DNA of 32,000 bases from Candidatus Nanopusillus sp. (lineage in GTDB: Archaea; Nanobdellota; Nanobdellia; Nanobdellales; Nanobdellaceae). The position numbers and the translations under genes were made by a program. Positions 5,301-30,077 of the stretch are shown here, one piece after another. The notes under the pieces are model-generated. The model searched no databases and had not been told where the DNA came from. It saw only the letters and a program-made list of their open reading frames with translations. The DNA lies in contig JAPWTW010000004.1 in NCBI GenBank assembly GCA_028275885.1, positions 30,001-62,000 on the forward strand. The letters are read 5' to 3'. Numbering within the stretch: the first letter of the stretch is position 1; the number at the start of each line of letters is the position of its first letter.

Positions 5301-6640
5301 TACAAAATTTAACATACTATCCATATATATATAATGTAAATCCGGGTGTCGCAATTTATATCGGTAATATATCTAATGTTGGAATTGGGAATCTTACAAT
5401 AATTATAAACCAAACACTTCCAGTTAAATCAATGAGCTTCTTATTACAACAGCAACAAAATTCACCACTATATATTTATTTCCCAACAAATTTATGTCCA
5501 CATTATGATTGTACAATAAATTATAGTGTAACATATCAAAATGCATATGGACTGACAGTTTATCCTTCTGTAACATATTATGGATATGTAGATATCAAAT
5601 GGGATACATTAAATATATATACTAATCCATCATTAACACAAATAACATATGGACAACCCTCATATATAACATTAGCAGTACAAAATACTGGGCCAGTACC
5701 TGCCGAGAATATATCTGTGCAAAATATATACTATAATTCAAATTGTATACAAGTATTAAATACTGGAGGTCAAATAAATTCATTGAATACAGGCGAAACT
5801 GGTTATTTAAATATAGAAATTAATATAATAAATCTATATTGTTCTCCACAAGATTATAATATAACATTTACAATTTATGGATGGAATACATATATATATA
5901 ATTATTCAATAATATTGCCAATAAGTTATATAATCTCTCCACCAAATGGGGCACAATTACAATCAATAACAACATTTAATATAGTAGATAATAATGCACA
6001 AACATGTTATATAATATTTAATGGAGCTCAATTCCCTAGAAATTGTAATTCAAATTTTGTGTATCAACAATATATGTGTGCAGGATCATTATGTAATACC
6101 CAAATTCAATCAATAAATAATTATGCAGAATTCTATGAAAATTATGTGTATTATAATTATTTAACGAATCAATCATCAATAATAGGAATAGCAGTTGTAT
6201 CAAATGTAATAAGTTTATATGTTGGACAAGAATATAAATATCCAGTCTTGATAAAAAATTTAGTACCAACAAATATTCAATGTTCTCTAGTACCAATTCC
6301 ATCAACTATAAATGATAAAGCAATTGTTACTAATTATAGTATAAATGGAATAAATAGTAATGAATTTACTATAAGTCCTTATGGATCTGCAGAATTGGAT
6401 ATAAATATTCTAGGAGCTTCTAGTGGTATAAGTAGTTTATTATATGGTGTAATATGTAATTCTACATATGGTTCTTCATCATTTAGTACCCAAGTTCCAA
6501 TATATGTATTTGGACCAAATAATTTAATAGCAAACTATACCAAATCTCAAATAATAGTATCTGAAAGAATATCTCCAACAGATTTAATTGGAATTGGAGG
6601 TTTAATAATAGTATTACTTGCTTTATTTAATATAATCTAA
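2372..6640 (+). CDS. Giant bipartite surface protein (S-layer/adhesin-like), two ectodomains joined by a TM hairpin
   Basis: 1422-codon ORF. N-terminal signal peptide MKKIYLLSFLLFSLYSIFSQG. Internal TM + RRKK + second signal-peptide-like segment near aa 503-540. C-terminal TM anchor LIGIGGLIIVLLALFNII. Dozens of N-x-S/T sequons. Segments resembling beta-sandwich adhesion (CARDB-like) domains, e.g. ITLAVQNTGPVPAENISVQN. No enzyme motifs seen. Confidence 0.8.
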   Translation: MKKIYLLSFLLFSLYSIFSQGYNILHSEYLYKPVTFLSMNLSNNNLSVGQTLYYNVYINYRDIYYISNASLVIQIIQKNDNNNIYPFQFTSNNQVYEYVIKNIYLQPGESLNIPLNYTIPDNLPSGYYYVVAYLYTPLSEINGLPFIYYPGVYQEFYIYNPNNVPEIYITKDHTYLSSSALYTWGSVLSSSGYYYSSLNGPSGYGVSNYINLTVGVYSSINTNATLNILISPWDDILYNSIYNYAENVQLNEGYNIINIPYINVATLNPNAYSLKISLLYNNQTESIYRLRFIVLGPTTRLNGVYLQGNGNLTFIVSPSPDHYTYPITPNVVAEVYSNTLGFKYDIQLGNISWNSTQFTYVNLQLPLNSTKFDLCINLYSNNNLDYAYCTYYIINQSNTYGIPLSSLIYVNYTNNYFYICSNISGILNIGYNSESNIIYTASINNNCVNYTLGSGVYYISFYSPQYSNQWVIDNTVMYIPYNISINQTQPINNVQNNYNYPNYYLIILIIFAAIILFMLLRRKKLFIFALVLLPLLFNIHSQELYLSSSQICTPLDSLNITTQGFNGSVTVSYKFYNSSNISQIFASGNYSYLGNNISIYNYTVYFNNLPLNLSNNINSTIIDYNITVQNCTLIGKNLPLLSCDQYNYNGSIYLNYPYYFKYYANPVYQGSNNAGQIIPGCPSSNNLLNNTYFNFTLVLPNGASVVTRTNCPGSGDPDWGQNLCDLNISSYDINAGNYTSYGEYYYYNISFNQSFIDNPLQVLVANSGEFTTQSCSHAWTITSVSSNPLSINFLYYGPYSGTYYTYYNGIYVLAQNTSVRFNVGSGYNILCSDGVTSTSIPSVAAWLYSSNQYYNPSSFQYLQGISNLPFNFTQYGISRNIVYNIYPNKGLLISKNFPSGDSYFTLYNFSVNNAGYYVIYQDYIKTICDTPANYICDANGNLCNISYIVGQAQGWLPISPEPGYYLLVINPNATVHLQNLTYYPYIYNVNPGVAIYIGNISNVGIGNLTIIINQTLPVKSMSFLLQQQQNSPLYIYFPTNLCPHYDCTINYSVTYQNAYGLTVYPSVTYYGYVDIKWDTLNIYTNPSLTQITYGQPSYITLAVQNTGPVPAENISVQNIYYNSNCIQVLNTGGQINSLNTGETGYLNIEINIINLYCSPQDYNITFTIYGWNTYIYNYSIILPISYIISPPNGAQLQSITTFNIVDNNAQTCYIIFNGAQFPRNCNSNFVYQQYMCAGSLCNTQIQSINNYAEFYENYVYYNYLTNQSSIIGIAVVSNVISLYVGQEYKYPVLIKNLVPTNIQCSLVPIPSTINDKAIVTNYSINGINSNEFTISPYGSAELDINILGASSGISSLLYGVICNSTYGSSSFSTQVPIYVFGPNNLIANYTKSQIIVSERISPTDLIGIGGLIIVLLALFNII

Positions 6641-8870: not shown

Positions 8871-9707
8871 ATGTTTGCACATGCTCAGGGTGAATATGAA
8901 AAATCAAAATGGATAATAGTAGGAATTCCATCAGAAATTGGTAGTTTATCTCATATAAAAAATTATATTGAAGGACCCGAATCCATTAGGGATGCATCTT
9001 ACAGAATATTTTCTCCAATATTTGGAGAAATAAATATGAAAGATATATATGATTATGGCGATATAGATTTGGAAGATATAAAAGATCTGGATAAATTATA
9101 TGAAAAAATATATAATGAAATTAAAAAAATATATAGAAAGGATAAAAAATATATATTTTTAGGAGGAGATCATTCAATAACATATCCAATATTAAAAATT
9201 GTTAAAGAAAATTGGGAAGATTTTTATTTATTGTATTTTGATGCCCATCCAGATATTCATCCTGATCCATATCCAAATTATCAAAGTTTTATTTATCATT
9301 TAATAAAGGAAAATTATATTGAACCTGAAAAAATTATTTATATTGGTATATCTAATTTATCGTTTGAAGAAAAAAATATAATAAAGGAGTGGGGGATAAG
9401 ATATTACAACCTTTTGGATGTTTGGGATAATATAAAAGAAATTTCAAAGGAGATATCAAATATATTAGAAAATAAAAATTTGTATATTTCAGTTGATATA
9501 GATGTATTTGATACAGGATGTGGACATTGGTTAGAAGGCATTGGAATTAGACCATATCATTATTTTAAGATTATAAAAGAATTAAGAAATATCAATTTAA
9601 TTGGTTTTGATTTAGTAGAATTATTTTCAAATGAAGTATGTGATAATTTGGCTGCAAAAATTGTTATTGAATCAATAGCAATCTTTAATAAATCTATGCA
9701 ATCATGA
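8871..9707 (+). CDS. Arginase-fold ureohydrolase (agmatinase-like), divergent
   Basis: Metal-binding motifs of the arginase/agmatinase family are present: GGDHSITYP, FDAHPD, SVDIDVFD. The segment after the last motif (TGCGHWLEGIGIRP) differs from the usual DPAFAPGTGTPEPGG-type loop, so the substrate is uncertain. Confidence 0.75.
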   Translation: MFAHAQGEYEKSKWIIVGIPSEIGSLSHIKNYIEGPESIRDASYRIFSPIFGEINMKDIYDYGDIDLEDIKDLDKLYEKIYNEIKKIYRKDKKYIFLGGDHSITYPILKIVKENWEDFYLLYFDAHPDIHPDPYPNYQSFIYHLIKENYIEPEKIIYIGISNLSFEEKNIIKEWGIRYYNLLDVWDNIKEISKEISNILENKNLYISVDIDVFDTGCGHWLEGIGIRPYHYFKIIKELRNINLIGFDLVELFSNEVCDNLAAKIVIESIAIFNKSMQS

Positions 9708-10341
9708 AATGTGTTTGATTAATTCTTTTTACATATACTGTTACAAGTTGATAAAATGTAATATTATTTACTGAATAACATGGTATGTAATTACATATAA
9801 TATTTCCATTTGTATTTTCTGTACATATTATATTTCCAGATAAATTTGTTGGAAATAAAAATACAAAAGTTTGATTTGAAGTATTTTTATTACTCAAACA
9901 AAAACTATATAAGAAATAATAAAAATCTGAATAATAATTTTTACATATGGTTAACTTGATATAATCTAAAGAATAATATACTGAAATTGGATATGTATAT
10001 GTATTACAATTTCCATTAAAATTTATAATTCCAAAACTATAATTACCAATTTCTGCTCTAAATGTATAAGGAAATATTGTACAATTTGGAAGCATATTGT
10101 AATATGTTTGATTGAATTGCCTTATTTTTTCCATTGTTGTAAAGTATATTGGATAATTTGGATATCCTATACAATTTGGAGAAAATAGGTTGTATATTAT
10201 TTCTTGTTGATATGAAAAAGAAGTTTGTTCTTTATAATTAGTTAAATTAATGCTAGAAAAAATTGCTAATAAAAGTATCATTCCAACTAAAAATAAAACG
10301 GTTAATATTGTTATAAATACTATGGAAAATTGTTCTTTCAT
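9694..10341 (-). CDS. Cluster protein 12: N-terminally anchored Cys-containing ectoprotein, unknown family
   Basis: 215 codons. N-terminus MKEQFSIVFITILTVLFLVGMILLLAIF (charged/Q head plus one hydrophobic helix). 8 Cys. Many N-x-S/T sequons. Last gene of the co-directional cluster. Confidence 0.75.
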   Translation of the reverse strand: MKEQFSIVFITILTVLFLVGMILLLAIFSSINLTNYKEQTSFSYQQEIIYNLFSPNCIGYPNYPIYFTTMEKIRQFNQTYYNMLPNCTIFPYTFRAEIGNYSFGIINFNGNCNTYTYPISVYYSLDYIKLTICKNYYSDFYYFLYSFCLSNKNTSNQTFVFLFPTNLSGNIICTENTNGNIICNYIPCYSVNNITFYQLVTVYVKRINQTHFMIA

Positions 10342-10349
10342 CTTTTATA

Positions 10350-11585
10350 TTAGAGATAATCTTTTATACATTCCTCTGGGAATGTTATTGTTTCTGGGCA
10401 TGTTGGGTTGTTAGGACATTGCCCTGGTAAACATACTGGACATTCTTCTCCACCAATTATACACATATAGCATTCAACTGGGATTGAATAATAATATGGG
10501 AATGTAAATATTATTTTTGAATCTTCTCTACTTATGCTTACATCACTACATCCATTTATTGAGGAACATGAATATTTTTGATCTTGTAATGTACAACTTT
10601 TCGATATCGCTGTCTTATTTGTTTCATTGTATACTCCAACACATTTATATATACAATTTAGATAATACTCGTTTGTTACATTTTCGTAAAAAACTATAGA
10701 AGTAATAATTATAGATTGCGGATATGTATTTCCGTTATAATATACATTATATCTATTGTCAGAACATTTTAATATTACTCTACAAGCAATTGCTTTAGGA
10801 TATAAACATATTTTACATAATGGAATATCCACACACTTATATGGAATTATTGTTTCGTTACATTTAATATCTGGGTTATTTGAAAATTGTTCAAATCTCC
10901 TTGCACAGTTATCAGTTGTAACATTATTATATAATGTATTTACACAATCTTGGAAAGAACATTCTGGAAATTCTTCTAAAGAAAATTGATATGCTAGATT
11001 ATACAAATAAAATGCTGGATTGTTTGTTATATTTGATGTAGATGCATAGGGAATTATTGAACCAGAAGAAGGTCCAGTAATATTTATGTATACCCCCTGA
11101 ACATAAACAGGAAAGTTATAATTATACTTTCCGGAATATATATCATCACATGTTCCTAGAATACCAGCTCGATAATTATTTGAAAAATTGAAAGATATAT
11201 TATATGGATAATAATATTTATATGCAGACAAATATTGTTCTCCATAGCTTATTAAGCTTGTAAATCCAGAAGTTAGTAAATTATTATAATATTGAATTGC
11301 ATTTTCACATGGTTGTGGTAATATACACTGAGGAGGAAAAGAAGCCCAGTTTTCTTTTCCCCAACCACTTGTTCCTGCTACATAAGATTTTGCATAACCT
11401 TCCTGTGTTAGTGCTGTTTGTAAATATCCTAAAAGGTAGTTTGATAAAGTAGATAAAGATGTAAATCTACCAAAAACAACATTCTGATTATAATTATATG
11501 TTAATGCATAAAAAGATAGAAGAATTATTAATATAGAAACTGTCAAAAATAGAACTATATAAATACTTTCTGTTTGATTTCTCAT
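10350..11585 (-). CDS. Cluster protein 11: N-terminally anchored, highly Cys-rich ectoprotein, unknown family
   Basis: 411 codons. N-terminus MRNQTESIYIVLFLTVSILIILLSFYAL. 24 Cys, with a dense C-terminal knot ECYMCIIGGEECPVCLPGQCPNNPTCPETITFPEEC. 4-nt overlap with the upstream gene. Confidence 0.8.
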   Translation of the reverse strand: MRNQTESIYIVLFLTVSILIILLSFYALTYNYNQNVVFGRFTSLSTLSNYLLGYLQTALTQEGYAKSYVAGTSGWGKENWASFPPQCILPQPCENAIQYYNNLLTSGFTSLISYGEQYLSAYKYYYPYNISFNFSNNYRAGILGTCDDIYSGKYNYNFPVYVQGVYINITGPSSGSIIPYASTSNITNNPAFYLYNLAYQFSLEEFPECSFQDCVNTLYNNVTTDNCARRFEQFSNNPDIKCNETIIPYKCVDIPLCKICLYPKAIACRVILKCSDNRYNVYYNGNTYPQSIIITSIVFYENVTNEYYLNCIYKCVGVYNETNKTAISKSCTLQDQKYSCSSINGCSDVSISREDSKIIFTFPYYYSIPVECYMCIIGGEECPVCLPGQCPNNPTCPETITFPEECIKDYL

Positions 11586-12787
11586 ACTTTTAATTTAATA
11601 TGAAGGTATATAAGTGTTAATATAATCATTGTTACTATCAATCCATGTATTATACCGAGTATTTTCATTATATTTGGTATAAATAATATACTTAATGGAG
11701 GACCTCCATATACTGCAAATTCTAGCAATTCTCCAATTATAACTTGTATTATAAGTAATATTCCAATTGTAATACCAATGGCTTTTTTAATTGGTTTTTT
11801 AACATTACTAAATAGTTTATGATGTATTCCTATGAAGAAAAATATCATAGCCATAAGATATCTTGTATGTAGAGCATAAGAAGTAAAATCTTTATTTGAT
11901 GTAAATAATGCACCCAAAAATATTATCAAGACCATAGTAAATAGTAAGAAATAATTTGTGAAATGATCATTTTTCATGCTCTTATAAATTAAAAAATAAA
12001 TAATAAATTCATATATGGATAAAAATATAAGAGCCTTATATACGGTAATCTGGTATTTTACAATTAAACTCTCTGAAGCTAGATTACTATAAAATGATAA
12101 CCCATATATAGCTATAACAATTTGTAATATTATAATAAAAAATATCGATAAAAATATATACTTTTTATATTTATAAATTTCTGATAATTTTTTGAATATT
12201 TTTGTTCTTACTATAAGTATTTCATTGCCATTAAAATATACAATCAGAAATAGAAATATAGCAAATACAATAAACAAAGTTGAATATAATGTTTTGAAAG
12301 TATAAATATTTGATAATGCAAAGTTAATGACTGAACCGACTATAGGTCCTGTTGCTACTTCTAAATCTATTGTTATAACGTTGATTACCAATTCAATGAA
12401 AAATAGTATTATAAATAAAACTAAAGAAAGTACATAAAATATCAAAGATTTTTTTGAAATATAAAAGTTATTTTCAAATAAATAATATCCTAGAGCAAAT
12501 ACTATAAAGTAAAATATCCAATAATTTATTGAAAGACCAAGTGATAAACGTACTAATAAAGGCCAATTTTGGTAATAGAGAGTTCCAAAAATTATAAATG
12601 GTATAAGTAAAAATGCCGACTTATATATCAAAGAAGTATTCTTTGAATTTTTTAATATAAAAGATAATAGAAATAAATATATTATACCAAAGATGATTAC
12701 ATTTATATTAAATTTACTATCAAAAGTAAAAAATAAGAATATTAGTAAATATAAAAGAAATAAAATTTTATCTTGTTTTTTTACCAT
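11582..12787 (-). CDS. Cluster protein 10: polytopic integral membrane protein (about 10-12 TM), Cys-free, unknown family
   Basis: 401 codons, almost entirely hydrophobic helices with short loops. Zero Cys. Overlaps both neighbours (7 nt upstream, 4 nt downstream). Confidence 0.8.
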   Translation of the reverse strand: MVKKQDKILFLLYLLIFLFFTFDSKFNINVIIFGIIYLFLLSFILKNSKNTSLIYKSAFLLIPFIIFGTLYYQNWPLLVRLSLGLSINYWIFYFIVFALGYYLFENNFYISKKSLIFYVLSLVLFIILFFIELVINVITIDLEVATGPIVGSVINFALSNIYTFKTLYSTLFIVFAIFLFLIVYFNGNEILIVRTKIFKKLSEIYKYKKYIFLSIFFIIILQIVIAIYGLSFYSNLASESLIVKYQITVYKALIFLSIYEFIIYFLIYKSMKNDHFTNYFLLFTMVLIIFLGALFTSNKDFTSYALHTRYLMAMIFFFIGIHHKLFSNVKKPIKKAIGITIGILLIIQVIIGELLEFAVYGGPPLSILFIPNIMKILGIIHGLIVTMIILTLIYLHIKLKV

Positions 12788-14409
12788 ACTGTTAATTTAG
12801 AGACAAGATATCCGCCTAAAAAAGGCATATCTACTGGCAAATATATATAATATACATATATGTTTGTGTTTGGTGGTATTGGATATCCCAAACTTACACT
12901 ATTTTGACTACCTTGATAAATATAAGCGTTTAATTCTTCTTTGTTTCCTGTATCAGTAATACAATATGCTCTTGCCATTGCAACACCGTTTGATCCAGCA
13001 TGTGGGTCATAATATACTGCAGAAATTATAAATTGATAGGTATTTGGGTCTCTATTATTTATTACCCATTTAGTAATATTAAATCTATAAAATCCTTGAG
13101 CATATGTATTAATACCACCTAAGTAAACTAAAGGGCATTCCTTTCCAACAACAATTCCGTTTATATTTTGTATATCATTATATACACCAGTTGGACACCT
13201 TATTGTTTTTTCATTTATTTTATATTCACATAAAGGATCTGCTGCTAAAAATACATAATCTGGTTGTCCATTTTTATTTAAATAAGAAATATATAGAGCC
13301 ACTGTCTCATGCCATGGATAATCTATAAATACTTGTTGGCAATGTGGTGGTATATTTACTACACCTCTGTAAAAAGATCCTACAACCAATACTTGACTAC
13401 CTCCGCAAAGGGAATTACCTGTATATCTTGTACCAAATTCTTGTTGACATGCTGCATTTAAATATTCTCTTGGGATTATAAAATCTGCTAGTCTATTTAT
13501 GTCAGTAGCAGTTTTATAAACAGGAGGACCTTGATAATATTGAGGTTCAGATGTTAGATATTGATTATTAGTTGCCGGACAAGATCTTGTATATATGCAT
13601 AAGAATCCAGAAAAGAAATTTGGTAAGTCAGATACTTGTTGAGCTAGTACACCAACTACACCTAAATAATTTGGAAATAAATGCCATTCACTATTGGGAC
13701 AATATACAGAAGCTTCAGTAAAATTATGATTTGGAAATATTCTTGATAAAGGTTCACAATATCTTAGTTGTATGGCCATTGCTTGTGATCCTTGTGGATA
13801 AAATGATTGTAAGCCCCATGCATTTGTTGATAATGTTTGATGGAAAGGTGCTGTTGCATTGACCCATCCAGCCCCATATATAGTCAGGCTTACTGGTATA
13901 TCAATATTCTGTGTATAATTATTTGTAAAGAAATACGTATAATCCCATTCATACCATTGTTTGCCATTTTGATCTGGTGGAGGTCTCATAGAACAAGGAT
14001 CCCAATTATTTATATTGCCAGCCACTACAAACATCTGGACAATCCATCCGGTTATTGGTGGTACAAAATATATTGTAAGGTTCCATCTATTTCCATATAT
14101 ACTATTAAAATAATTTGTTATAGTCTGTGATATATTTGTACATATATTTTGATTTATGCAGTATGTATCGTTTCCAGAAGATGAAAAATAAGATAATAAA
14201 AATGCATAGGATAAGTTAACTTTATTATCATTAATATATGATAATAAAACAATACTATTCTGGGTTGTTAGAGTATATTGATTTTCTACATTATAAGTTT
14301 GCATTGTTTTTTGATTATAGTTACTTGATATTAAGGTATATAATAGAACTAATAATGATATTATTGAAATTATAATAACAAATGTTAGAGTATTTATTTG
14401 ATTTTTCAT
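12781..14409 (-). CDS. Cluster protein 9: N-terminally anchored large ectoprotein, unknown family
   Basis: 542 codons. N-terminus MKNQINTLTFVIIISIISLLVLLYTLI. 14 Cys. No Walker or other catalytic motif recognised. Confidence 0.8.
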   Translation of the reverse strand: MKNQINTLTFVIIISIISLLVLLYTLISSNYNQKTMQTYNVENQYTLTTQNSIVLLSYINDNKVNLSYAFLLSYFSSSGNDTYCINQNICTNISQTITNYFNSIYGNRWNLTIYFVPPITGWIVQMFVVAGNINNWDPCSMRPPPDQNGKQWYEWDYTYFFTNNYTQNIDIPVSLTIYGAGWVNATAPFHQTLSTNAWGLQSFYPQGSQAMAIQLRYCEPLSRIFPNHNFTEASVYCPNSEWHLFPNYLGVVGVLAQQVSDLPNFFSGFLCIYTRSCPATNNQYLTSEPQYYQGPPVYKTATDINRLADFIIPREYLNAACQQEFGTRYTGNSLCGGSQVLVVGSFYRGVVNIPPHCQQVFIDYPWHETVALYISYLNKNGQPDYVFLAADPLCEYKINEKTIRCPTGVYNDIQNINGIVVGKECPLVYLGGINTYAQGFYRFNITKWVINNRDPNTYQFIISAVYYDPHAGSNGVAMARAYCITDTGNKEELNAYIYQGSQNSVSLGYPIPPNTNIYVYYIYLPVDMPFLGGYLVSKLTVW

Positions 14410-15251
14410 TTTAGATAATATAATAGTATAAATAGGCCTATTATTACTATAATTATAACTATTGCCGTTGGTAAAATCAAATTAACATTATTGATGTTAT
14501 TAGTACTTACATTTGGTTGTGGATAAATTAATTGTTGGTTATTATTTGTAAGATTATTTGTTAAGTTTATTTCAGTTTGATTTATACATTCAAATACACC
14601 GGTACAAGATATATAAACAATATTTGGTGGTGGACATTTCTGTAGAAATTCTTGATACAATTGATTTAATGAATAATTGTATGGGCATCTAAACCAGTTA
14701 CCTTGAAAAGATAAATTCTCTGGACAATAACCACAGCTGTAAAAATTACGGTAATATAATAATAATGACTGATAAGATTCATTACCTGCTAAGTAGGAAA
14801 GTGGTATATATGGGTGATCAAAACATGGGTAAATTTGATTAGAACATGGGGGGTAATACCAAGGCGTATTTGGACAATTTAATAGATTATCACATAATGT
14901 TTGATTTTCTGTTGGTATAGTTAGGTCTTGATATGCCGATGGAGGAATTAATATATATGGACTAACTAATGTACCATTTTGGTATTTACAATAACTGCTA
15001 TTTACATATATTAATCCGTAATGTGCACAAAGAGAATATTCTGGAGGTACATTATTTTCAAAATATTGTAAAGCGTCAAAATATGTATTATTTATAATAC
15101 AATAGGAGCCTGTATCATTTGCGTAATAGGTTCCTCCACCATATTCACAGTAAACTGCTATTGGATTTTTCATAGAGAATATATTATATAGTAAATTTAT
15201 GAAGATAGTTATAAGAAATGCTAATAAATTTCTATTTTGCGAGAGTAACAT
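14406..15251 (-). CDS. Cluster protein 8: secreted Cys-rich type-I membrane protein with DUF333-like N-terminal motif
   Basis: Signal peptide MLLSQNRNLLAFLITIFINLLYNIFS, then KNPIAVYCEYGGGTYYANDTGSYC (resembles the NPA-x-x-YC-x(3)-GG...C motif of DUF333). 14 Cys. C-terminal TM anchor LILPTAIVIIIVIIGLFILLYYLK. Confidence 0.75.
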   Translation of the reverse strand: MLLSQNRNLLAFLITIFINLLYNIFSMKNPIAVYCEYGGGTYYANDTGSYCIINNTYFDALQYFENNVPPEYSLCAHYGLIYVNSSYCKYQNGTLVSPYILIPPSAYQDLTIPTENQTLCDNLLNCPNTPWYYPPCSNQIYPCFDHPYIPLSYLAGNESYQSLLLYYRNFYSCGYCPENLSFQGNWFRCPYNYSLNQLYQEFLQKCPPPNIVYISCTGVFECINQTEINLTNNLTNNNQQLIYPQPNVSTNNINNVNLILPTAIVIIIVIIGLFILLYYLK

Positions 15252-16689
15252 TTTGTATTGCTACAATTGAAAACTTAGGAAATGATATGCCATAAGGTGA
15301 CTGATCAAATGGTACATATATATATCCATCTTGCATCCAATAAACTCCTCCACAAGATGATCCTATTGCGGCACTGCAAGCTTGATAATCTGAATAATAT
15401 CTATAGCATTCACTTTTACTAAGAGTTATTCCACCTATTCTACCATCTGAAGTATAAATTAAACATTCTGTTACACGCCCCCATGAATTTGCAAATATCC
15501 AACATTTTGGAGTTCCATATACTTCTTGACATAGTTGGGATTGTGTATCATATCCAACCAGCAACATAGCATGACCTGTAGTTCTTACAAAATATAAAGG
15601 ATATTTATTTGGATTAGATCCGCCAATTCCAGCCATATAGCCACTAACTGTTAATGGTCCATAGCATAACAAATATTGAATTATTTCTAGACTTGATAAA
15701 GACTTCCCTTCATGAACTAATTCCATAACATTATGTGAATAATATAATGGTGAAGTGGGCCCATTATAGTCAAAATTGCATACATCTCCAGGATAACTAA
15801 TATCATCTGTTCTACACATTGCTAAAGTAGAACTATAATGTCTTCGTTCAGGATCTGCTGGTATACCATATTGAGATGCATATAGTATACCTATATATGG
15901 CCAACCGCCGTTACAACCCATATTATTTTCACAATATATTGTAGTATTCGGATAACCCTTATTACATTTTATTGCTATATATGCAGCGGATAATGTTAAT
16001 CCTTCGTTAGGTTTATTATTTCTTATCATATAAATTGAGGCAATTTGATTTGAAGATGCAAATGCCCAACAGTCTCCACAAACTCCTTGATCACCCACTG
16101 GAGGTAAGTAATTATTTCCATTTACATCACCCCAGAAAAATCTTGATTGTTCAGTATATTTAACTAAACATCTACTATTTGGGTCAATAGTATTATTTAT
16201 TTGGTTAGTCTGATTATTTTGATTAGTTTCTGGACTTATGATTATAATAGTTCCATTAGGCAAATATTGATTAAATATGAAAATTGTATCATTAAAATCT
16301 GCAGAAATAAAAATAGTATTATTTGTACTAACCAAATATATATAATTATTTGGATATAAAAAACTTACATTTTGACCATTATTGTATAAAATTACAGATT
16401 TATTTTGAAAATTAATCGTATAATTATAATTATTATATTGGATTATTAATTTGTTGTCTCTTGAATATAATATAATTCCACTTGGTATATCAACTTTTAT
16501 ATAATGTGTACCTTGCATGTTGTTTATTGTATCCTGTAAATTTTGTAAATTATTGACAAAATTCTCAAATATATATCTTTCTTGTTCCCTTTTAACATTT
16601 GTAGAATATTGATAATAAATTAAGAAAGATAATGATACAATTAATAATATTATTGCTACTGAGAGCAAATTTAACTGATTCTTTTTCAT
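15232..16689 (-). CDS. Cluster protein 7: membrane-anchored papain-family (C1) cysteine peptidase
   Basis: N-terminal anchor MKKNQLNLLSVAIILLIVSLSFLIYY, an N/I/Y-rich beta-like middle region, then a C1 domain with all catalytic elements: Q-G-V-C-G-D-C-W-A-F (Gln oxyanion and Cys207, codon 16069-16071), TGHAMLLVGYD (His), FANSWG (Asn-Ser-Trp). Confidence 0.9.
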   Translation of the reverse strand: MKKNQLNLLSVAIILLIVSLSFLIYYQYSTNVKREQERYIFENFVNNLQNLQDTINNMQGTHYIKVDIPSGIILYSRDNKLIIQYNNYNYTINFQNKSVILYNNGQNVSFLYPNNYIYLVSTNNTIFISADFNDTIFIFNQYLPNGTIIIISPETNQNNQTNQINNTIDPNSRCLVKYTEQSRFFWGDVNGNNYLPPVGDQGVCGDCWAFASSNQIASIYMIRNNKPNEGLTLSAAYIAIKCNKGYPNTTIYCENNMGCNGGWPYIGILYASQYGIPADPERRHYSSTLAMCRTDDISYPGDVCNFDYNGPTSPLYYSHNVMELVHEGKSLSSLEIIQYLLCYGPLTVSGYMAGIGGSNPNKYPLYFVRTTGHAMLLVGYDTQSQLCQEVYGTPKCWIFANSWGRVTECLIYTSDGRIGGITLSKSECYRYYSDYQACSAAIGSSCGGVYWMQDGYIYVPFDQSPYGISFPKFSIVAIQNVTLAK

Positions 16690-16710
16690 TATGATCTATA
16701 ATATTTAAAA

Positions 16711-16720
16711 ATTTTTTAAA
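16711..16720 (-). promoter_or_regulatory. Possible internal TATA element ahead of the peptidase gene
   Basis: The only sizeable gap inside the cluster is 35 nt (16690-16724). The minus strand there reads TTTAAAAAAT, centred about 26 nt upstream of the ATG at 16689. Composition makes this weak evidence. Confidence 0.25.
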
Positions 16721-16724
16721 ATTT

Positions 16725-17165
16725 TTAACTTGGATTTTCTATATAAATTGTTACATCTGTTGGAGATGTTTTTTTAACAAGCAAAGGTATTTTTTGATTA
16801 GGACTTCCACGTGATAATTCATAAAATAATCCGGAAGTATAATATTGAATCATATTATTTGTTGTATTTATTATTACATTGCAAGGTACTGTATAATTAT
16901 AATATTTGTCATATATGTAACAGCTTAATAAATTACCATTACTATATATATAATTTAGATATTTGTTTATTTCAATAGTAATATGAAATTCTGTTCCATT
17001 ATTGGAATAGCACGCTCTTTCAACTGTTGCATATAAATTTTGACATGAAGATATATTTTTATATAATAATTGAGTCTCATTATTTATGCCTGTAAATTTA
17101 AAATATAAATATAAAGATAAACCAAAAGCAATAATTGCTATAATTATCCAAAACCACTTTTCCAT
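16725..17165 (-). CDS. Cluster protein 6: small N-terminally anchored protein (pilin-like topology)
   Basis: 146 codons. N-terminus MEKWFWIIIAIIAFGLSLYLYF. 4 Cys. Beta-rich N/Y/I domain. 2-nt gap from the upstream gene. Confidence 0.7.
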   Translation of the reverse strand: MEKWFWIIIAIIAFGLSLYLYFKFTGINNETQLLYKNISSCQNLYATVERACYSNNGTEFHITIEINKYLNYIYSNGNLLSCYIYDKYYNYTVPCNVIINTTNNMIQYYTSGLFYELSRGSPNQKIPLLVKKTSPTDVTIYIENPS

Positions 17166-17167
17166 TT

Positions 17168-17581
17168 TTATCCTTGAATATTAATATAAACATAATTTCC
17201 TGCCGAATAAATTAATATATACTTTCCAGGATTTATATTATAATTACAATTTTGCATTGCAACATTTGGATCTATACTCTTTACTCCATTTATTAAATCT
17301 TCACATGTAAATGATGGCCCCTGATAATGAATCAAGTAACAGAGACCTTGAGCTTTTTTATAATAACATGATACCACATTCATTGCAACAGTTGTCATTG
17401 AACTTACATTTGTTTCTACTACAGTCTGTGTAGTATTGTATTTGGGCATTATGTTATTTATGTATGAAGATATATTTTCTCTTAATACAAATATTATTCC
17501 TGCAATTGTTAATGTAACAATTATTCCAATAAAGATTAAAAAAGTATAATTAATTGGGAGCTCTTGAATTCTCATTGCCAT
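17168..17581 (-). CDS. Cluster protein 5: small N-terminally anchored protein (pilin-like topology)
   Basis: 137 codons. N-terminus MAMRIQELPINYTFLIFIGIIVTLTIAGIIFVL. 4 Cys. C-terminal GKYILIYSAGNYVYINI motif shared with proteins 3 and 4. Confidence 0.7.
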   Translation of the reverse strand: MAMRIQELPINYTFLIFIGIIVTLTIAGIIFVLRENISSYINNIMPKYNTTQTVVETNVSSMTTVAMNVVSCYYKKAQGLCYLIHYQGPSFTCEDLINGVKSIDPNVAMQNCNYNINPGKYILIYSAGNYVYINIQG

Positions 17582-18051
17582 ATTATAATATAGCTATTGT
17601 TGTATATTATAAATATGCTGTTGTATGGATATATATTTCCTCCACTATTATTTAAATGGAATATAATTTTATTTGGATTAAATTTAGTATAATTTTGTAC
17701 ATATTGTATTAATGTTGCTGAATTTAGGATAATATTCTTATTTATATAAACATCATAACATATATTAAATAATTTATTTGTATTTACATTATTATTATAA
17801 CAATTTAATATTAATCCTACTATACTTAAATAAATTGTATCAATACTCTCATTTGTATATATTATATTTATTGCAGAAGGATAATATTTTTCACATGATG
17901 GAGAAAAACCACCTTGTGATATTAATGTTTGACAATAATATGCTTGAGAATTGCTAAAGAATTTTGTATATATAATACTCAATATAACTGCGACAGATAT
18001 TATTGCTATTATTATTATAAATATTGTATCTATTGTTATATCATTCTTCAT
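17572..18051 (-). CDS. Cluster protein 4: small N-terminally anchored protein (pilin-like topology)
   Basis: 159 codons. N-terminus MKNDITIDTIFIIIIAIISVAVILSIIY. 4 Cys. C-terminal NSIFIIYNNSYIIIW motif. 4-nt overlap upstream. Confidence 0.7.
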   Translation of the reverse strand: MKNDITIDTIFIIIIAIISVAVILSIIYTKFFSNSQAYYCQTLISQGGFSPSCEKYYPSAINIIYTNESIDTIYLSIVGLILNCYNNNVNTNKLFNICYDVYINKNIILNSATLIQYVQNYTKFNPNKIIFHLNNSGGNIYPYNSIFIIYNNSYIIIWQ

Positions 18052-18332
18052 ATATAATTAATACTTCCATTATAAATATATATAATTCTATATCCAGCAG
18101 GTATTGTTATTCCATTTATTGTACAATTTTCATTAAGAAATACTTTAATATCAATTATTTCTTGAAAACTTTTATTATATAAGTTTTTTAGTTGTTGGCA
18201 ATTAATTGTTTGTATACTATTTTCACTTAAATTATTTTTTACATTATAAATATAATAAAAAGAAAATAGGCCAGCAGCTATAATTAATATAAAAGTTATT
18301 ATAATCCAATATATTGTTTGTTGTAATTTCAT
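18048..18332 (-). CDS. Cluster protein 3: small N-terminally anchored protein (pilin-like topology)
   Basis: 94 codons. N-terminus MKLQQTIYWIIITFILIIAAGLFSFYY. 2 Cys. C-terminal GYRIIYIYNGSINYI motif. 4-nt overlap with the platform gene. Confidence 0.65.
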   Translation of the reverse strand: MKLQQTIYWIIITFILIIAAGLFSFYYIYNVKNNLSENSIQTINCQQLKNLYNKSFQEIIDIKVFLNENCTINGITIPAGYRIIYIYNGSINYI

Positions 18333-20299
18333 AATTGTATATTTGTTGGTAAATATGGGCCAAATATTGTATATACTATTAATATTCCTATTATTGAAAA
18401 TATAACATAAAATATTGTTCCAGACAATAAATTTCTACCTATATAATATGATGTCATTGTATTGTCAAATCCATATTTTATTCCAGCACTCATATATGAA
18501 GTTATTATTACATATTCTATAAAAAATGTACCAATTATTGCTTCAAAAAATGTTGGCGGTATTAAATTATATAGATTAAATGTATTTACAACAAAATTGA
18601 ATATATTTGTTCCTCCACCAAGACCAAAAGATTGATCTATTAATTGAAAGAAATATGCAAGTGCAAAAAGCATTGAAACTATACCATTATTAAAAATTGT
18701 AACTATTGCAGAAATTAATGGTACAAGATTTTTTGATGTTATATCTATTAATCCAATTATTTCATTTAATATTTTTCTTACGCTATATCTTATGTTATTT
18801 ACATTTTCTAAGTTTGTTGATATATTATATGCGATCTTTGATAAAACTTCAGGACCTTTTGATACAGAAGTAACTAAAAGTTGCATAGATTCTCTTACTA
18901 ATTTTGATGGATATAAATTTAATGAACCAATTTTTGAATCAAATATAGAAGTACTTAAATCATAACCCCTTCTTAAATTATATAATGTTGTTTTTAGAAA
19001 ATTTTCCATAATTCCAGATGATTTTATTATTTTATAATTATAATATGTTTTTTCAATTACTATTTCAAATGGATAGCCATCTTCTAATAATGATGCAAAT
19101 TCATATATAACAATTGGAAACTCATTTTCTATTTCTTCAATTTGATATATTTTTTTAACTTTTTGAAAAGATGTTAAATAATAATAAGATCCTATACTTA
19201 AACCCAACCCTAAAGGTAATGTTAAAGTTAAAACAGAATATATTAGCGCTCTATCTTGATAAACTATATTTAAATATTCACTTAAAAATCCCTGTGGAAT
19301 AAATGTAATTCTTATAGCTAAAGAAACTAAATGATATATTCCCAGAACTGCAATCGATCCCAATATTATTGAAATTATTATTGCTGGAACTTCTTTATTT
19401 CCAATTTTAAATTTTCCAGGTTTTGGTAAATCTCTTGCTAAAGATAAATCTGGAACAGAAAATGCAAAAGGATTTTTTGATAGGAAGTTTTGAATTATTA
19501 AAAATGTAATAACTGGTAAAATTATTATATATGAAAATGCTATGAAATAGAAACTTACAGTATTTAATAAAAATGTAGATATTATTGGTAATAGCAATAA
19601 ACTAACTATTGGCATCATTACTAAAAAAGATACTATAACTGTTGCAGGTTCTTTTAAGGCATCTACATATAATTGGGATTTTTCTAATGATTTTTTTAAT
19701 ACCCATCCCAATATTCTATCTAATAATTTATTTATATCATCAATAGATGTTTTATATTTAATATTTACAATATGTGTCATTGCATATGCAAAATCTGGAC
19801 TTAAATAAAACCATCGTCTTTGATAGTATTCTAATGCAGATTCTATATCTTTAAATTTATTTGTTTCTAAATTATATAATAATGATCTAAAGTCTGTTGC
19901 AATATAACCTCTCATATAATATGCTACATATTTTATTCCATTTTCTAAATTAGGATTCCTTTTTAGATATAATGATAAATATAATATTATCCATATAATT
20001 TCTGATGTTACTTGAATTCTAATAACCTGTGTATAAAATATTGGATAATATGCAAAATAGAATGATAATATTAATAAAGATATTAATAAAGAAAAAGCAA
20101 ATTGAAAGCTAACAAAACTTAAAATAAAATATATAACTATAGAAAATAATATTAGAGTTACTACAGAAGAAAATATATTATCAGGATTTGTATTTAATCT
20201 ATTTAACCATAAATGAAAGGTATATTTTTTATATATTGGATCAGGAGCTTTTAGTTTTATTAAATTAAAATTATTATAAAAATATTCAAAAAAACTCAT
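18329..20299 (-). CDS. Cluster protein 2: polytopic membrane protein, FlaJ/TadC/PilC-like (T2SS-F type) platform candidate
   Basis: 656 codons. Two helical soluble segments, each followed by TM helices, are arranged like the duplicated T2SS-F domain. First segment: NLENGIKYVAYYMRGYIATDFRSLLYNLETNKFKDIESALEYY. Second segment: EFPIVIYEFASLLEDGYPFEIVIEKT...LRRGYDLSTSIFDS...YPSKLVRESMQLLVTSVSKGPEVLSKIAYNI. Zero Cys. Assigned by eye, not by profile search. Confidence 0.5.
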   Translation of the reverse strand: MSFFEYFYNNFNLIKLKAPDPIYKKYTFHLWLNRLNTNPDNIFSSVVTLILFSIVIYFILSFVSFQFAFSLLISLLILSFYFAYYPIFYTQVIRIQVTSEIIWIILYLSLYLKRNPNLENGIKYVAYYMRGYIATDFRSLLYNLETNKFKDIESALEYYQRRWFYLSPDFAYAMTHIVNIKYKTSIDDINKLLDRILGWVLKKSLEKSQLYVDALKEPATVIVSFLVMMPIVSLLLLPIISTFLLNTVSFYFIAFSYIIILPVITFLIIQNFLSKNPFAFSVPDLSLARDLPKPGKFKIGNKEVPAIIISIILGSIAVLGIYHLVSLAIRITFIPQGFLSEYLNIVYQDRALIYSVLTLTLPLGLGLSIGSYYYLTSFQKVKKIYQIEEIENEFPIVIYEFASLLEDGYPFEIVIEKTYYNYKIIKSSGIMENFLKTTLYNLRRGYDLSTSIFDSKIGSLNLYPSKLVRESMQLLVTSVSKGPEVLSKIAYNISTNLENVNNIRYSVRKILNEIIGLIDITSKNLVPLISAIVTIFNNGIVSMLFALAYFFQLIDQSFGLGGGTNIFNFVVNTFNLYNLIPPTFFEAIIGTFFIEYVIITSYMSAGIKYGFDNTMTSYYIGRNLLSGTIFYVIFSIIGILIVYTIFGPYLPTNIQL

Positions 20300-20303
20300 T
20301 ACA

Positions 20304-21065
20304 TTAGCTTGTTACACTTGGTATATTATTTAACTGGGAATATGGTACTTGTAATAAGAATTGACATAATGGCATTCCATTGACATTATTATTTATACCT
20401 AATGCTGTACAATTTCCAGTTACTACTAATATTCCATTACTAACTGTTAAATTCAAATTACATCCATTTGCAGTATTATAATAGTTAATTATCTTTAATA
20501 ATGCACCAAATACTTGGTTTGTAATCCATGTTGGCAATTGTGCAGAACATTGTGCTGGACCTGGATATAATATTTGAGATGGAGAGGAAATAATAATATT
20601 TGCTTGTCCTGATTTTATATCAAATGATGTAGCAGGAGAATAATTTCCAAATACATAACTTGTTGCTTGTGCTGGACTATAATATAGATCATTAATATAA
20701 TACTGACATTCTATATACATACAGTTAAGAGGCGTTATAGTATATCCTTCATGTTGACATTGACTAGAAGGGCCACCATATAATTGTAATATTACACTAC
20801 ATGGAACAGCATTTGAACAGATATAATATCCAGGACTTACTTGTACAAGTCCATTTCCTATATTTTCATATTTTGTACAAAATGTTGTTGGGGTTGAACA
20901 ATAGCTTGAACAATCTGAAACTGCCTGTTGTATTTGCGTATTTGATATTGTACTAATTTTTGATGATTGTTGTTGGAATAATTTAATTACAATAACTGCT
21001 ACTACTAACATTATTATTATTACAAATATTAACTGTACAGCTATATCTATACCTCTCCTTCTCAT
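20304..21065 (-). CDS. Cluster protein 1: pilin-like Cys-rich protein with class III-like signal peptide
   Basis: N-terminus MRRRG-IDIAVQLIFVIIIMLVVAVIVIKLF: a basic head ending in R-G followed by a long hydrophobic helix, as in archaeal type IV pilin-like precursors. 12 Cys. First gene of the cluster. Confidence 0.65.
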   Translation of the reverse strand: MRRRGIDIAVQLIFVIIIMLVVAVIVIKLFQQQSSKISTISNTQIQQAVSDCSSYCSTPTTFCTKYENIGNGLVQVSPGYYICSNAVPCSVILQLYGGPSSQCQHEGYTITPLNCMYIECQYYINDLYYSPAQATSYVFGNYSPATSFDIKSGQANIIISSPSQILYPGPAQCSAQLPTWITNQVFGALLKIINYYNTANGCNLNLTVSNGILVVTGNCTALGINNNVNGMPLCQFLLQVPYSQLNNIPSVTS

Positions 21066-21088
21066 AATTAAGGATAAACATTTTATTC

Positions 21089-21096
21089 TTTATAAA
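21089..21096 (-). promoter_or_regulatory. Putative TATA box for the 12-gene cluster (leaderless spacing)
   Basis: Palindromic TTTATAAA in the 36-nt gap between the DUF371 stop (21102) and the cluster start (21065), centred about 27 nt upstream of the ATG. Confidence 0.35.
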
Positions 21097-21101
21097 TATT
21101 T

Positions 21102-29804: not shown

Positions 29805-30077
29805 ATGGTAACATTTGATGATTTAAGAAAGAAAATAGTTGATGAAAAAAGCATAATTATTGGGTATAATAGAACTTTAAAAATGATTAAAAGAGGAAAA
29901 GTTGAAAAAGTATTTTTAGCAAAAAATGTTCCTGAAAATATAAAAAAAGATATAGAATATTATCAGAAGTTAGGAAATTTTGAAGTAGAAGTACTGAATT
30001 ATTCAAATGAAGAAGTAGGTTTGTTATTGAAAAAGCCATTTAAAATTTCCGTTATATCTATATTAAAGAATGGCTAA
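29805..30077 (+). CDS. rpl30e: 50S ribosomal protein L30e (eL30)
   Basis: About 90-aa L7Ae/L30e-fold pattern ([34 protein letters not shown]) in the conserved position just after rpoA''. Confidence 0.8.

Follow-up and report, generated by a model that had tools for sequence, protein, structure and literature searches.

The 32,000-nucleotide (nt) stretch analyzed here (positions 30,001 to 62,000 of contig JAPWTW010000004.1 from Candidatus Nanopusillus sp., referred to below as the window) carries 12 consecutive minus-strand open reading frames (ORFs), g1 to g12, that run from position 21065 down to 9694 in the ORF listing of the window. We propose that this cluster is probably a strongly diverged locus of the type IV filament (TFF; i.e., type IV pilus-like) kind that is restricted to terrestrial Nanobdellota (Nanopusillus, Nanobsidianus, YN1, and Nanobdella). 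Because its platform, pilins, adhesin-like pilins, and membrane proteins match the published plan of archaeal TFF systems, we read the cluster as a divergent variant of a known superfamily; it is not a categorically new apparatus. The first-pass annotation, whose gene inventory was correct, had held that no described archaeal pilus or secretion locus combines these parts. No described system with the same gene order was found in the literature searched, and to that extent the statement stands, but the parts themselves are those of the archaeal TFF system 2/Epd-type architecture. What sets the cluster apart is the lack of a local ATPase or prepilin peptidase, a C1 peptidase carried on a pilin-like N terminus, orphan Cys-rich families, the orphan polytopic protein g10, and recombining distal alleles. 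The 12 genes are as follows (aa, amino acids).

g1, 20304-21065, minus strand: 253 aa, 12 Cys; prepilin-like, candidate major filament subunit
g2, 18329-20299, minus strand: 656 aa, 0 Cys, about nine transmembrane segments; FlaJ/TadC/T2SS-F family membrane platform
g3, 18048-18332, minus strand: 94 aa, 2 invariant Cys; small pilin-like protein
g4, 17572-18051, minus strand: 159 aa, 4 invariant Cys; small pilin-like protein
g5, 17168-17581, minus strand: 137 aa, 4 invariant Cys; small pilin-like protein
g6, 16725-17165, minus strand: 146 aa, 4 invariant Cys; small N-terminally anchored protein, carrier module
g7, 15232-16689, minus strand: 485 aa, peptidase domain at about nt 15475-16113; modular pilin-like protein with papain-family (C1) peptidase
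g8, 14406-15251, minus strand: 281 aa, 14 Cys; type I membrane ectoprotein, not pilin-like
g9, 12781-14409, minus strand: 542 aa, 14 Cys; large pilin-like ectoprotein of an orphan family
g10, 11582-12787, minus strand: 401 aa, 13 to 14 helices, 0 Cys; lineage-restricted polytopic membrane protein
g11, 10350-11585, minus strand: 411 aa, 24 Cys; large pilin-like ectoprotein of an orphan family
g12, 9694-10341, minus strand: 215 aa, 8 invariant Cys; pilin-like ectoprotein, the cluster's last gene in this lineage

The cluster is conserved as a unit. The same gene order and the same flanks occur in two Nanopusillus metagenome-assembled genomes (MAGs), in MAG KM4331-08 (L008), in YN1 ('Ca. Nanofervidus parviconus', AP031373.1), in Nanobdella aerobiophila MJ1 (AP019769.1), and in two more distant contigs (L011 and L012). 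Five sampled Nanopusillaceae/Nanobdellaceae lineages, among them the cultured MJ1 and strain YN1, have contigs that cover the cluster from end to end, and all 12 genes are collinear in each of them; contigs L011 and L012, which end within the cluster (after g10 and after g9, respectively), are collinear up to those ends. Synteny in related genomes, which had been put forward as a check on the cluster, is thus conserved, and because gene order and flanks hold across lineages, chance clustering can be ruled out. Identity of g2 is 93 to 95% to proteins of the Nanopusillus MAGs and drops to 53% across the syntenic loci. The exact g2 sequence is present in the protein collection under the label hypothetical or putative membrane protein, and it shares a 90% cluster with EOD42221.1 of Nanobsidianus stetteri; this Nanopusillus/Nanobsidianus-like source, a hot-spring nanoarchaeon, bears out the initial guess of a reduced, host-dependent archaeon. 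The window also matches a Joint Genome Institute (JGI) metagenome contig from sample 3300036346.

Based on its sequence relatives, g2 is a platform protein of the FlaJ/TadC/T2SS-F family (T2SS, type II secretion system), as had been tentatively suggested; the link is transitive, running through homologs that reach Pfam T2SSF, but solid. A phmmer search with g2 returned 14 distant homologs (22 to 29% identity, E 5e-68 to 9e-26), and 6 of the 22 aligned sequences of the g2 family match PF00482 (T2SSF). Among them, the Nanopusillaceae paralog P0009, matched by g2 at E 4.9e-68, reaches T2SSF at 38.1 bits versus a cutoff of 25.2 bits and does so in two stretches. Other homologs match T2SSF over residues 153 to 292 or 366 to 550, that is, in the N- or the C-terminal half, which therefore points to the two-repeat architecture of the T2SSF family. 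The best match of the g2 profile in the PDB is the cytoplasmic domain of GspF/EpsF, albeit a weak one (E 0.14), and the MJ1 ortholog is annotated as a "type II secretion system protein."

The neighborhoods of the distant g2 homologs point the same way. At three of four such loci (L003 from Aenigmatarchaeota, the DPANN locus L005, and L010 from Woesearchaeota), the homolog lies directly downstream of a T2SSE ATPase of about 745 to 770 aa; at the fourth, L004, no ATPase was called nearby. At all four, small proteins follow it in a row, with a single N-terminal helix and starts of [KR][GA]Q or KRG. L003, L005, and L010 are ordinary archaeal type IV pilus loci. At L005 (L005:1-7773), the ATPase-TadC pair has as its neighbors an exosortase/archaeosortase-like gene (PF09721) and genes for giant surface proteins (1488 and >1880 aa), which suggests that DPANN pilus loci are commonly embedded in surface-protein neighborhoods. 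An archaellum was considered and set aside: the cluster holds no archaellin, FlaH, or FlaI gene or Pfam match. YN1 encodes an archaellum, FlaBDEHIJF, and its g2 ortholog, YN1_4460, is labeled only as a hypothetical protein and stands outside that archaellum list.

The first gene, initially described as pilin-like, carries a canonical class III signal across eight lineages. Its N terminus in the window reads MRRRG and then, past the presumed cleavage site, IDIAVQLIFVIIIMLVVAVIVIKLF (also given, after the same MRRRG, as IDIAVQLIFVIII). We call this signal canonical because its leader is basic, the residue at -1 is small, and a hydrophobic stretch of about 22 residues follows. The orthologs follow the pattern M[KR][KR]R[GAS] and then [IVL][DE][MI]A[VI][QE], and the -1 residue is G, A, or S in eight of eight lineages. 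In a Woesearchaeota locus with an ATPase and TadC, a 119-aa pilin-like ORF is matched over its N-terminal 92 positions by the g1 family profile (E 2e-6, 33-ORF database). PDB profile searches with g1 and with its N terminus gave nothing meaningful.

A related N terminus recurs through most of the cluster. The proteins g3, g4, g5, g7, g9, g11, and g12, together with g6 in the most distant lineage, start with M-[KR]-x-Q (or D/E in place of Q) followed by about 20 hydrophobic residues, and the leaders of g3 to g7, g9, g11, and g12 are very short, at 3 to 5 residues. In MJ1, the leaders MKAQ (g3), MAMKGQE (g5), MKSQ (g9), and MKSQ (g12) correspond to the canonical class III motif [KR]-[GAS]/Q, where the slash marks the cleavage site. 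The other orthologs vary around this theme. For g3, the window has MKLQQ and a hydrophobic helix, YN1 has MKSQ, and L011 has MKGE; for g4, MKND and the hydrophobic helix are kept in five lineages; for g5, MAMRIQE in the window corresponds to MKSQE or MKNQE in YN1 and L008. The N terminus of g6 reads MEKWFWIII in the window and MRNQVEKFLW in its most distant ortholog, L011, and g7 starts with MKKNQ and a helix. Among the larger proteins, g9 has MKNQINTLTF in the window, MKSQ also in YN1, and MRAQ in L011; g11 has MRNQTESIY, with M[KR][NS]Q.E in its orthologs; and g12 has MKEQFSIVF, with MKNQ in YN1. A pilin-like N terminus was found in none of the 18 noncluster ORFs of the window.

Two further observations bear on what this N terminus means. 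At the ATPase-linked DPANN loci, the small proteins start with MRKGQ, MKKGQ, MEKAQ, or MKAQ, that is, with the same motif, and the Aenigmatarchaeota pilus locus L003 encodes a 595-aa protein whose start, MKAQINLAV, is comparable to the MKNQINTLTF of g9. Gln at +1 is the hallmark of EppA-processed Methanococcus pilins; in the Epd pilins of Methanococcus maripaludis it stands after [KR]-G. Likeness between the families of the cluster, as measured with HHalign, is confined to the first 25 to 65 residues: g9 and g11 pair at 85% (over the N-terminal 65 residues of g11), g7 and g9 at 77%, g4 and g5 at 72% (residues 1 to 28), and g3 and g12 at 60%, and the likeness of g3 to g12, g9, and g11 is restricted to the N-terminal 28 to 62 residues. 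Likeness limited to the N terminus is a pattern typical of pilins. Because the short class III-like leader with Gln at +1 is shared, and is found in ATPase-linked DPANN pilus loci as well, g3 to g7, g9, g11, and g12 are best read as pilin-like proteins. The earlier description of the proteins with one N-terminal helix as generic anchored proteins does not hold up in the light of this shared leader. The short leaders may be cleaved and the proteins may polymerize, both of which we infer.

Several observations weigh against a filament. The g2 protein itself gave no T2SSF match at E ≤ 0.1 in Pfam and none in NCBIfam. The single-sequence AlphaFold2 (AF2) model of g1 has a predicted local distance difference test (pLDDT) value of 46, is confident only for a helix at residues 3 to 35, and is too poor for a fold search that could bear on a pilin fold. 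The curated pilin models match no cluster member, and the same models also miss the control DPANN pilins. In the short leaders, by a tally made by eye, about half of the orthologs have Asn at -1 and about a third have G, A, or S, the rest having E, L, Y, V, or I; a -1 residue that is mostly Asn falls outside the G/A/S rule for A24 prepilin peptidases. No T2SSE ATPase was found within the 32 kb of the window, over a further 10 kb to its right, or at the YN1 and MJ1 loci (22 kb), and no prepilin peptidase was found in or near the cluster. Finally, there was no A24 peptidase in the two nanoarchaeal genomes available to Makarova et al. in 2016 (PMC4858521).

Some of these points lend weight to a different arrangement, namely, a nonfilamentous, membrane-anchored ectoprotein assembly, bindosome-like or lineage specific, in which uncleaved signal anchors would hold the protease and the Cys-rich binding proteins while g2 and g10 act as scaffolds. 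Such an assembly would sit well with the mostly noncanonical -1 residue (N, Y, E, or L), with the lack of an ATPase in cis and of any A24 peptidase reported in nanoarchaea, with leaders of only 3 to 5 residues, so that cleavage may be dispensable, and with four ectodomain families and g10 that are without known relatives. Nonetheless, we consider it unlikely. A plain anchor would hardly account for the conserved Gln right behind the basic residue in seven paralogous families, nor for its canonical K-[GAS]-Q form in N. aerobiophila; pilins at the ATPase-linked loci of other DPANN archaea bear the same motif; and g1 is a textbook prepilin. Moreover, to our knowledge, a FlaJ/TadC platform has no role except together with an assembly ATPase (in T2SS, type IV pili, and the archaellum).

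In total, we favor a model in which g2 would serve as the polytopic FlaJ/TadC-type membrane platform and g1, the classical prepilin, would be the probable main subunit, polymerizing through its N-terminal helix. The small proteins g3 to g6 would act as minor pilins that prime or cap assembly, and g7, g9, g11, and g12 as modular pilins inserted by their pilin-like helix into the filament or into a short pseudopilus. Their disulfide-rich ectodomains, a papain-type protease in g7 and putative binding modules, would thereby be displayed outside the cell, with g8 (a type I membrane protein) and g10 (orphan and polytopic) as accessory membrane parts. A T2SSE-family assembly ATPase, and any leader peptidase, would be encoded elsewhere in the genome. 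FlaI and further ATPases have been reported in nanoarchaea (PMC4858521), and we infer that an ATPase is used in trans. We further posit a role at the host or cell-cell interface, in host adhesion or in breaching of the host envelope, and put the cluster forward as a testable candidate for a host-contact filament.

The protease is the one part of the cluster that can be named directly: among all 12 proteins, only g7 is recognized by Pfam/NCBIfam. Its match to Peptidase_C1 (PF00112; E 2.3e-18, residues 193 to 405), at 67.5 bits versus a curated cutoff of 20.7 bits, bears out the family call of the first-pass annotation, and the closest solved relative of the domain is dipeptidyl peptidase I (E 6.6e-10). 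Residues Q201, C207 (in GDCWAF), H373 (in GHAMLLVGY), and N401 (in NSWG) align to the catalytic positions, and the same motifs occur in the YN1 and MJ1 orthologs. Because Gln201, Cys207, His373, and Asn401 are kept, the C1 domain is predicted to be active and, as far as its sequence tells, should be. The module moves between pilin-like carriers. It is attached to g7 in the window; in YN1 it is fused via a Pro/Ser-rich linker to a g6-type N terminus in a 579-aa protein (L009:13201-16741); and it is missing from the MAG KM4331-08 locus (L008:13201-15920). The N-terminal domain of g7 (residues 3 to 130) is a separate ORF of 141 to 143 aa in YN1 and in MAG KM4331-08.

A hydrolase encoded in the operon, next to a platform with one major and several minor pseudopilin-like genes that resemble GspF and GspG-K, also brings to mind a type II secretion-like pseudopilus, which would act not as an adhesive fiber but as a piston that releases or presents the protease and g8 across the S-layer; the annotation of the MJ1 g2 ortholog as a type II secretion protein would agree. 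We regard this scenario as highly improbable, given that the protease itself bears a pilin-like N terminus and is not a free Sec substrate and that no secretin-like or S-layer channel component was recognized in the cluster. We also know of no described archaeal T2SS.

The ectoproteins had been described as anchored and Cys rich, and both parts hold: membrane helices were found at their N or C termini, and Cys makes up 2.1 to 5.8% of their residues, compared with 0 to 2.0% in eight nonsecreted flanking proteins of at least 200 aa, 1.8% in a neighboring 1422-aa protein with a Sec signal, and 0% in the two polytopic proteins of the cluster. The Cys positions are almost all conserved among orthologs (12 of 12 in g1 are at least 80% conserved, and 19 of 24 in g11 are invariant), which fits structural disulfides in exported domains. 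Similarly, even numbers of conserved Cys residues together with many sequons would fit extracellular exposure at 80°C and pH 3.

These exposed proteins also evolve in an unusual manner. We compared the window with 21 hot-spring metagenome contigs whose g2 is 90 to 95% identical (L016-L036), plus L006 and L007. In most contigs, the flanking housekeeping genes are mostly 87 to 98% identical to the window, while g7 is at 59 to 65%, g10 at 59 to 67%, g9 at 68 to 74%, g11 at 72 to 76%, and g8 at 73 to 78%. In three contigs (L027, L028, and L031), the pattern is reversed: g4 to g12 are 81 to 98% identical, and g1 and g3 only about 81 to 83%. Synonymous divergence (dS, Nei-Gojobori) follows suit. Against the common class, it is 0.4 to 0.8 in g5 to g11 and 0.16 to 0.44 in the flanks; against the rare class, it is 0.07 to 0.3 in g4 to g12 and 0.23 to 0.56 in g1 to g3 and the flanks. 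Because identity and dS are discordant between the g1-g3 and g4-g12 blocks, these data imply that g4 to g12 (9694-18051) exist as old and deeply divergent allelic classes that have been swapped by recombination, the breakpoint lying near g3/g4. The ratio of nonsynonymous to synonymous divergence (dN/dS) is 0.2 to 0.5 in the ectoprotein genes and g10 versus 0.04 to 0.11 in RNA polymerase and never exceeds 1. Such fast allelic divergence fits the excess of nonsynonymous single-nucleotide polymorphisms (SNPs) reported for hypothetical surface proteins and FlaJ/TadC homologs of Yellowstone Nanoarchaeota, where the gene in that paper is not matched to g2 (PMC6142677).

Several of the membrane proteins and ectoproteins stand alone. 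In g8, a Sec-type signal is followed by a DUF333-like N domain, a Cys-rich region, and a C-terminal transmembrane anchor, with hydrophobic segments at residues 9 to 27 and 258 to 276. The tentative call of this domain as DUF333-like (PF03891) recurs in six of nine family members, but every score is subthreshold, at 14.1 bits (E 0.06) for the window protein versus the threshold of 25 bits and with a best E of 1.3e-4 in the family. The domain is duplicated as a separate ORF of 172 to 175 aa in YN1 and L008. No Pfam, NCBIfam, or PDB-profile relative was found for g9 and no Pfam or PDB-profile relative for g11; altogether, four Cys-rich ectodomain families are without recognized relatives.

The most isolated protein is perhaps g10. 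A phmmer search against 1.84 billion representatives returned seven proteins, all of its own family, and there was no consistent Pfam match and no PDB profile match. The AF2 model built from an eight-sequence alignment (pLDDT 78, predicted template modeling score 0.76) has 13 to 14 helices and found no match with Foldseek in the PDB (best E 1.7, template modeling score <0.31). The invariant residues are H307-T308-R309, H322, G352-E353, E356, H381-G382, and H396, with no invariant Asp. The four invariant His residues form two i/i+15 pairs (H307/H322 and H381/H396) on two predicted transmembrane helices, next to the HTR and GExxE motifs (nt 11585-11890, residues 300 to 401), a pattern reminiscent of a bis-His cofactor or metal site.

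We considered and rejected several identities for g10. It is not an A24 prepilin peptidase (no invariant Asp), a second platform (HHalign to g2 only 0.2%), or an archaeosortase (0 Cys). An O-antigen ligase or GT-C-like enzyme was set aside when Foldseek gave no match in the PDB, and a di-heme cytochrome b-like protein, suggested by the His pairs, for want of a supporting fold or family match. That g10 might be a nonhomologous replacement peptidase is remote speculation. In MJ1 and YN1, a thirteenth gene follows g12 (L037:20640-21686 and L001:21375-21971, respectively) and encodes a polytopic product of 348 to 349 aa; it is absent from the window, where g12 abuts an arginase-family gene. Judged by eye from shared motifs, the 348-aa MJ1 product looks like a g10 paralog.

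What might such a filament be for? Three recent cryo-electron tomography (cryo-ET) studies, of N. aerobiophila, YN1, and YN4, report that these cells bear an elaborate organelle for attachment as well as further appendages, and all state that the molecular parts are unknown. It is tempting to connect the two, and in one such scenario the cluster would build the thin intercellular filament or tube (6.6 to 8.2 nm) of the Nanobdellota attachment organelle, with its associated parts, while a pilin-tethered protease opens the host S-layer. The whole cluster is present in both cryo-ET-characterized species that we examined, YN1 and N. aerobiophila, and the filament, whose molecular identity is stated to be unknown, measures 6.6 nm in YN1, 7 nm in MJ1, and 8.2 nm in YN4 (PMC11420986, PMC11104419, 10.64898/2026.06.04.730037). 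The published genomic survey of MJ1 surface proteins covered only those in which a signal peptide could be detected, and the ectodomain genes are fast evolving and recombining, as expected of host-specificity determinants. On the other hand, other type IV pilus genes are also reported in these genomes, and a second, 15-nm appendage and nanotubes are likewise without assigned genes. No type IV pilus is known to reach hundreds of nanometers into host cytoplasm, as the tube does, and nothing in the cluster obviously accounts for the cone or the portal. We therefore hold this identification to be doubtful. A bolder version, in which type IV filament machinery was co-opted for penetrating another archaeon, supplying both the organelle filament or tube and an envelope-breaching protease, and in which the 3-residue leader is either processed by a non-A24 enzyme (possibly g10) or left unprocessed, strikes us as a similarly long shot.

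Whatever its relation to the organelle, the locus provides, for those nanoarchaea, a concrete list of candidate genes for a surface filament that are conserved and evolve fast; one of them encodes a protease whose target could be the host envelope. In 2016, both the pilins of one nanoarchaeal ATPase clade and the prepilin peptidase in nanoarchaea were listed as unidentified (Makarova et al. 2016, PMC4858521). The noncanonical K-N-Q leaders may explain how such pilins escape standard detectors. Even on a conservative reading, known archaeal TFF diversity grows by a locus without an ATPase, a modular pilin that bears an enzyme, and the exchange of allelic cassettes.

The arrangement of the locus is compact. 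In gene order from g1 to g12, the junctions are +4, -4, -4, -10, +2, +35, -20, -4, -7, -4, and +8 nt, that is, seven overlaps, three short gaps (+4, +2, and +8), and a single 35-nt gap at 16690-16724; the coordinates reproduce exactly every junction that had been listed for 12 codirectional ORFs. Based on the gene overlaps, g1 to g12 may be translationally coupled and cotranscribed. The scan for promoters and terminators was of a bacterial type and is uninformative for AT-rich archaeal DNA (the G+C content of the window is about 25%). By inspection, two possible promoters can be listed.

possible promoter, 21066-21101, minus strand: 36-nt spacer upstream of g1 with TATA-like TTTATAAA at 21096-21089, 23 nt before the ATG; weak evidence, such a match being the chance expectation in DNA of about 21% G+C
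possible internal promoter before g7, 16690-16724, minus strand: AT-only 35-nt gap with TTTTTAAATA; weak evidence

On one flank, DUF371 and RimK genes lie on the same strand as the cluster and are followed by a divergent rpoH-rpoB''-rpoB'-rpoA'-rpoA'' operon. On the other flank, a convergent arginase/agmatinase-family gene (plus strand, 8871-9707) overlaps the 3' end of g12 with its own 3' end by 14 nt (9694-9707), which therefore leaves no terminator space between them. Outside the cluster, the 1422-aa protein mentioned above (2372-6640, plus strand) has a Sec-type signal (MKKIYLLSFLLFSLYSIFSQG), 25 Cys, and 52 N-glycosylation sequons, and is without a Pfam match; it is a large protein, probably of the surface or S-layer type. 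To the right of the window (L015:11982-13611), a phage-type integrase and an AbiEii-like toxin gene lie between ribosomal protein operons, in a genome that is very small.

How does the cluster compare with systems that have been described? That Nanoarchaeota have type IV pilus components is known in broad outline (PMC4858521, PMC6142677), and the genome papers on Nst1 and N. acidilobi do not mention the cluster. The Nanobdellota attachment organelle (which cryo-ET of N. aerobiophila, YN1, and YN4 shows to have a cone, a portal, and a 7-nm filament or tube) occurs in the same organisms that carry the cluster (MJ1 and YN1), and its filament diameter is within the type IV filament range; the link between genes and structure is a hypothesis only. 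The Sulfolobus bindosome (BasABC-BasEF) is like the cluster in principle, in that ectoproteins with pilin-type N termini are assembled at the surface by a TadC-like/ATPase pair together with small pilin-like proteins (Zolghadr 2011, cited in PMC4858521). The cluster has, however, no solute-binding proteins and no BasE-like ATPase, and its cargo is a protease and orphan Cys-rich domains; the likeness is one of principle.

Modular pilins offer a second parallel. Those of Streptococcus sanguinis (PilB with a vWA module and PilC with a lectin module; PMC8179133) carry, like g7, a functional module on a pilin N-terminal moiety. That system is bacterial, and its modules are displayed on the filament, as those of the cluster may be. 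Modules also shuffle between carriers in the cluster, as g7 and the g6 fusion of YN1 show. No protease-bearing modular pilin was found in the literature searched.

The closest relatives in plan are archaeal. The Epd pili of Methanococcus maripaludis (TFF system 1) share with the cluster at least five minor pilins and additional membrane proteins, and in Methanococcus the EppA-type pilins are processed by a dedicated peptidase, with such loci linked to papain-fold (transglutaminase-like) surface peptidases of unknown role (PMC4858521). A TFF system 1 locus encodes two platform proteins along with an ATPase and EppA, whereas the cluster has one platform, no ATPase, and no recognizable A24 peptidase; moreover, its -1 residue is mostly Asn, and its peptidase is of the C1 family and fused to a pilin-like helix. 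Among described architectures, that of archaeal TFF system 2/clade 2 comes closest (e.g., Haloferax volcanii PilB3-PilC3 and PilA; Makarova et al. 2016, PMC4858521; a 2026 MacSyFinder survey, 10.64898/2026.04.22.720090). Unlike that system, the cluster has no ATPase in cis, a platform diverged enough to be labeled hypothetical in most genomes, a C1 peptidase tethered to a pilin-like helix, Cys-rich ectodomains of orphan families, and g10, itself an orphan. Like it, the cluster combines a single-gene FlaJ/TadC platform with multiple pilins, including pilin-like proteins without a standard class III signal peptide (SPIII) motif, extra membrane proteins, and large adhesin-like proteins.

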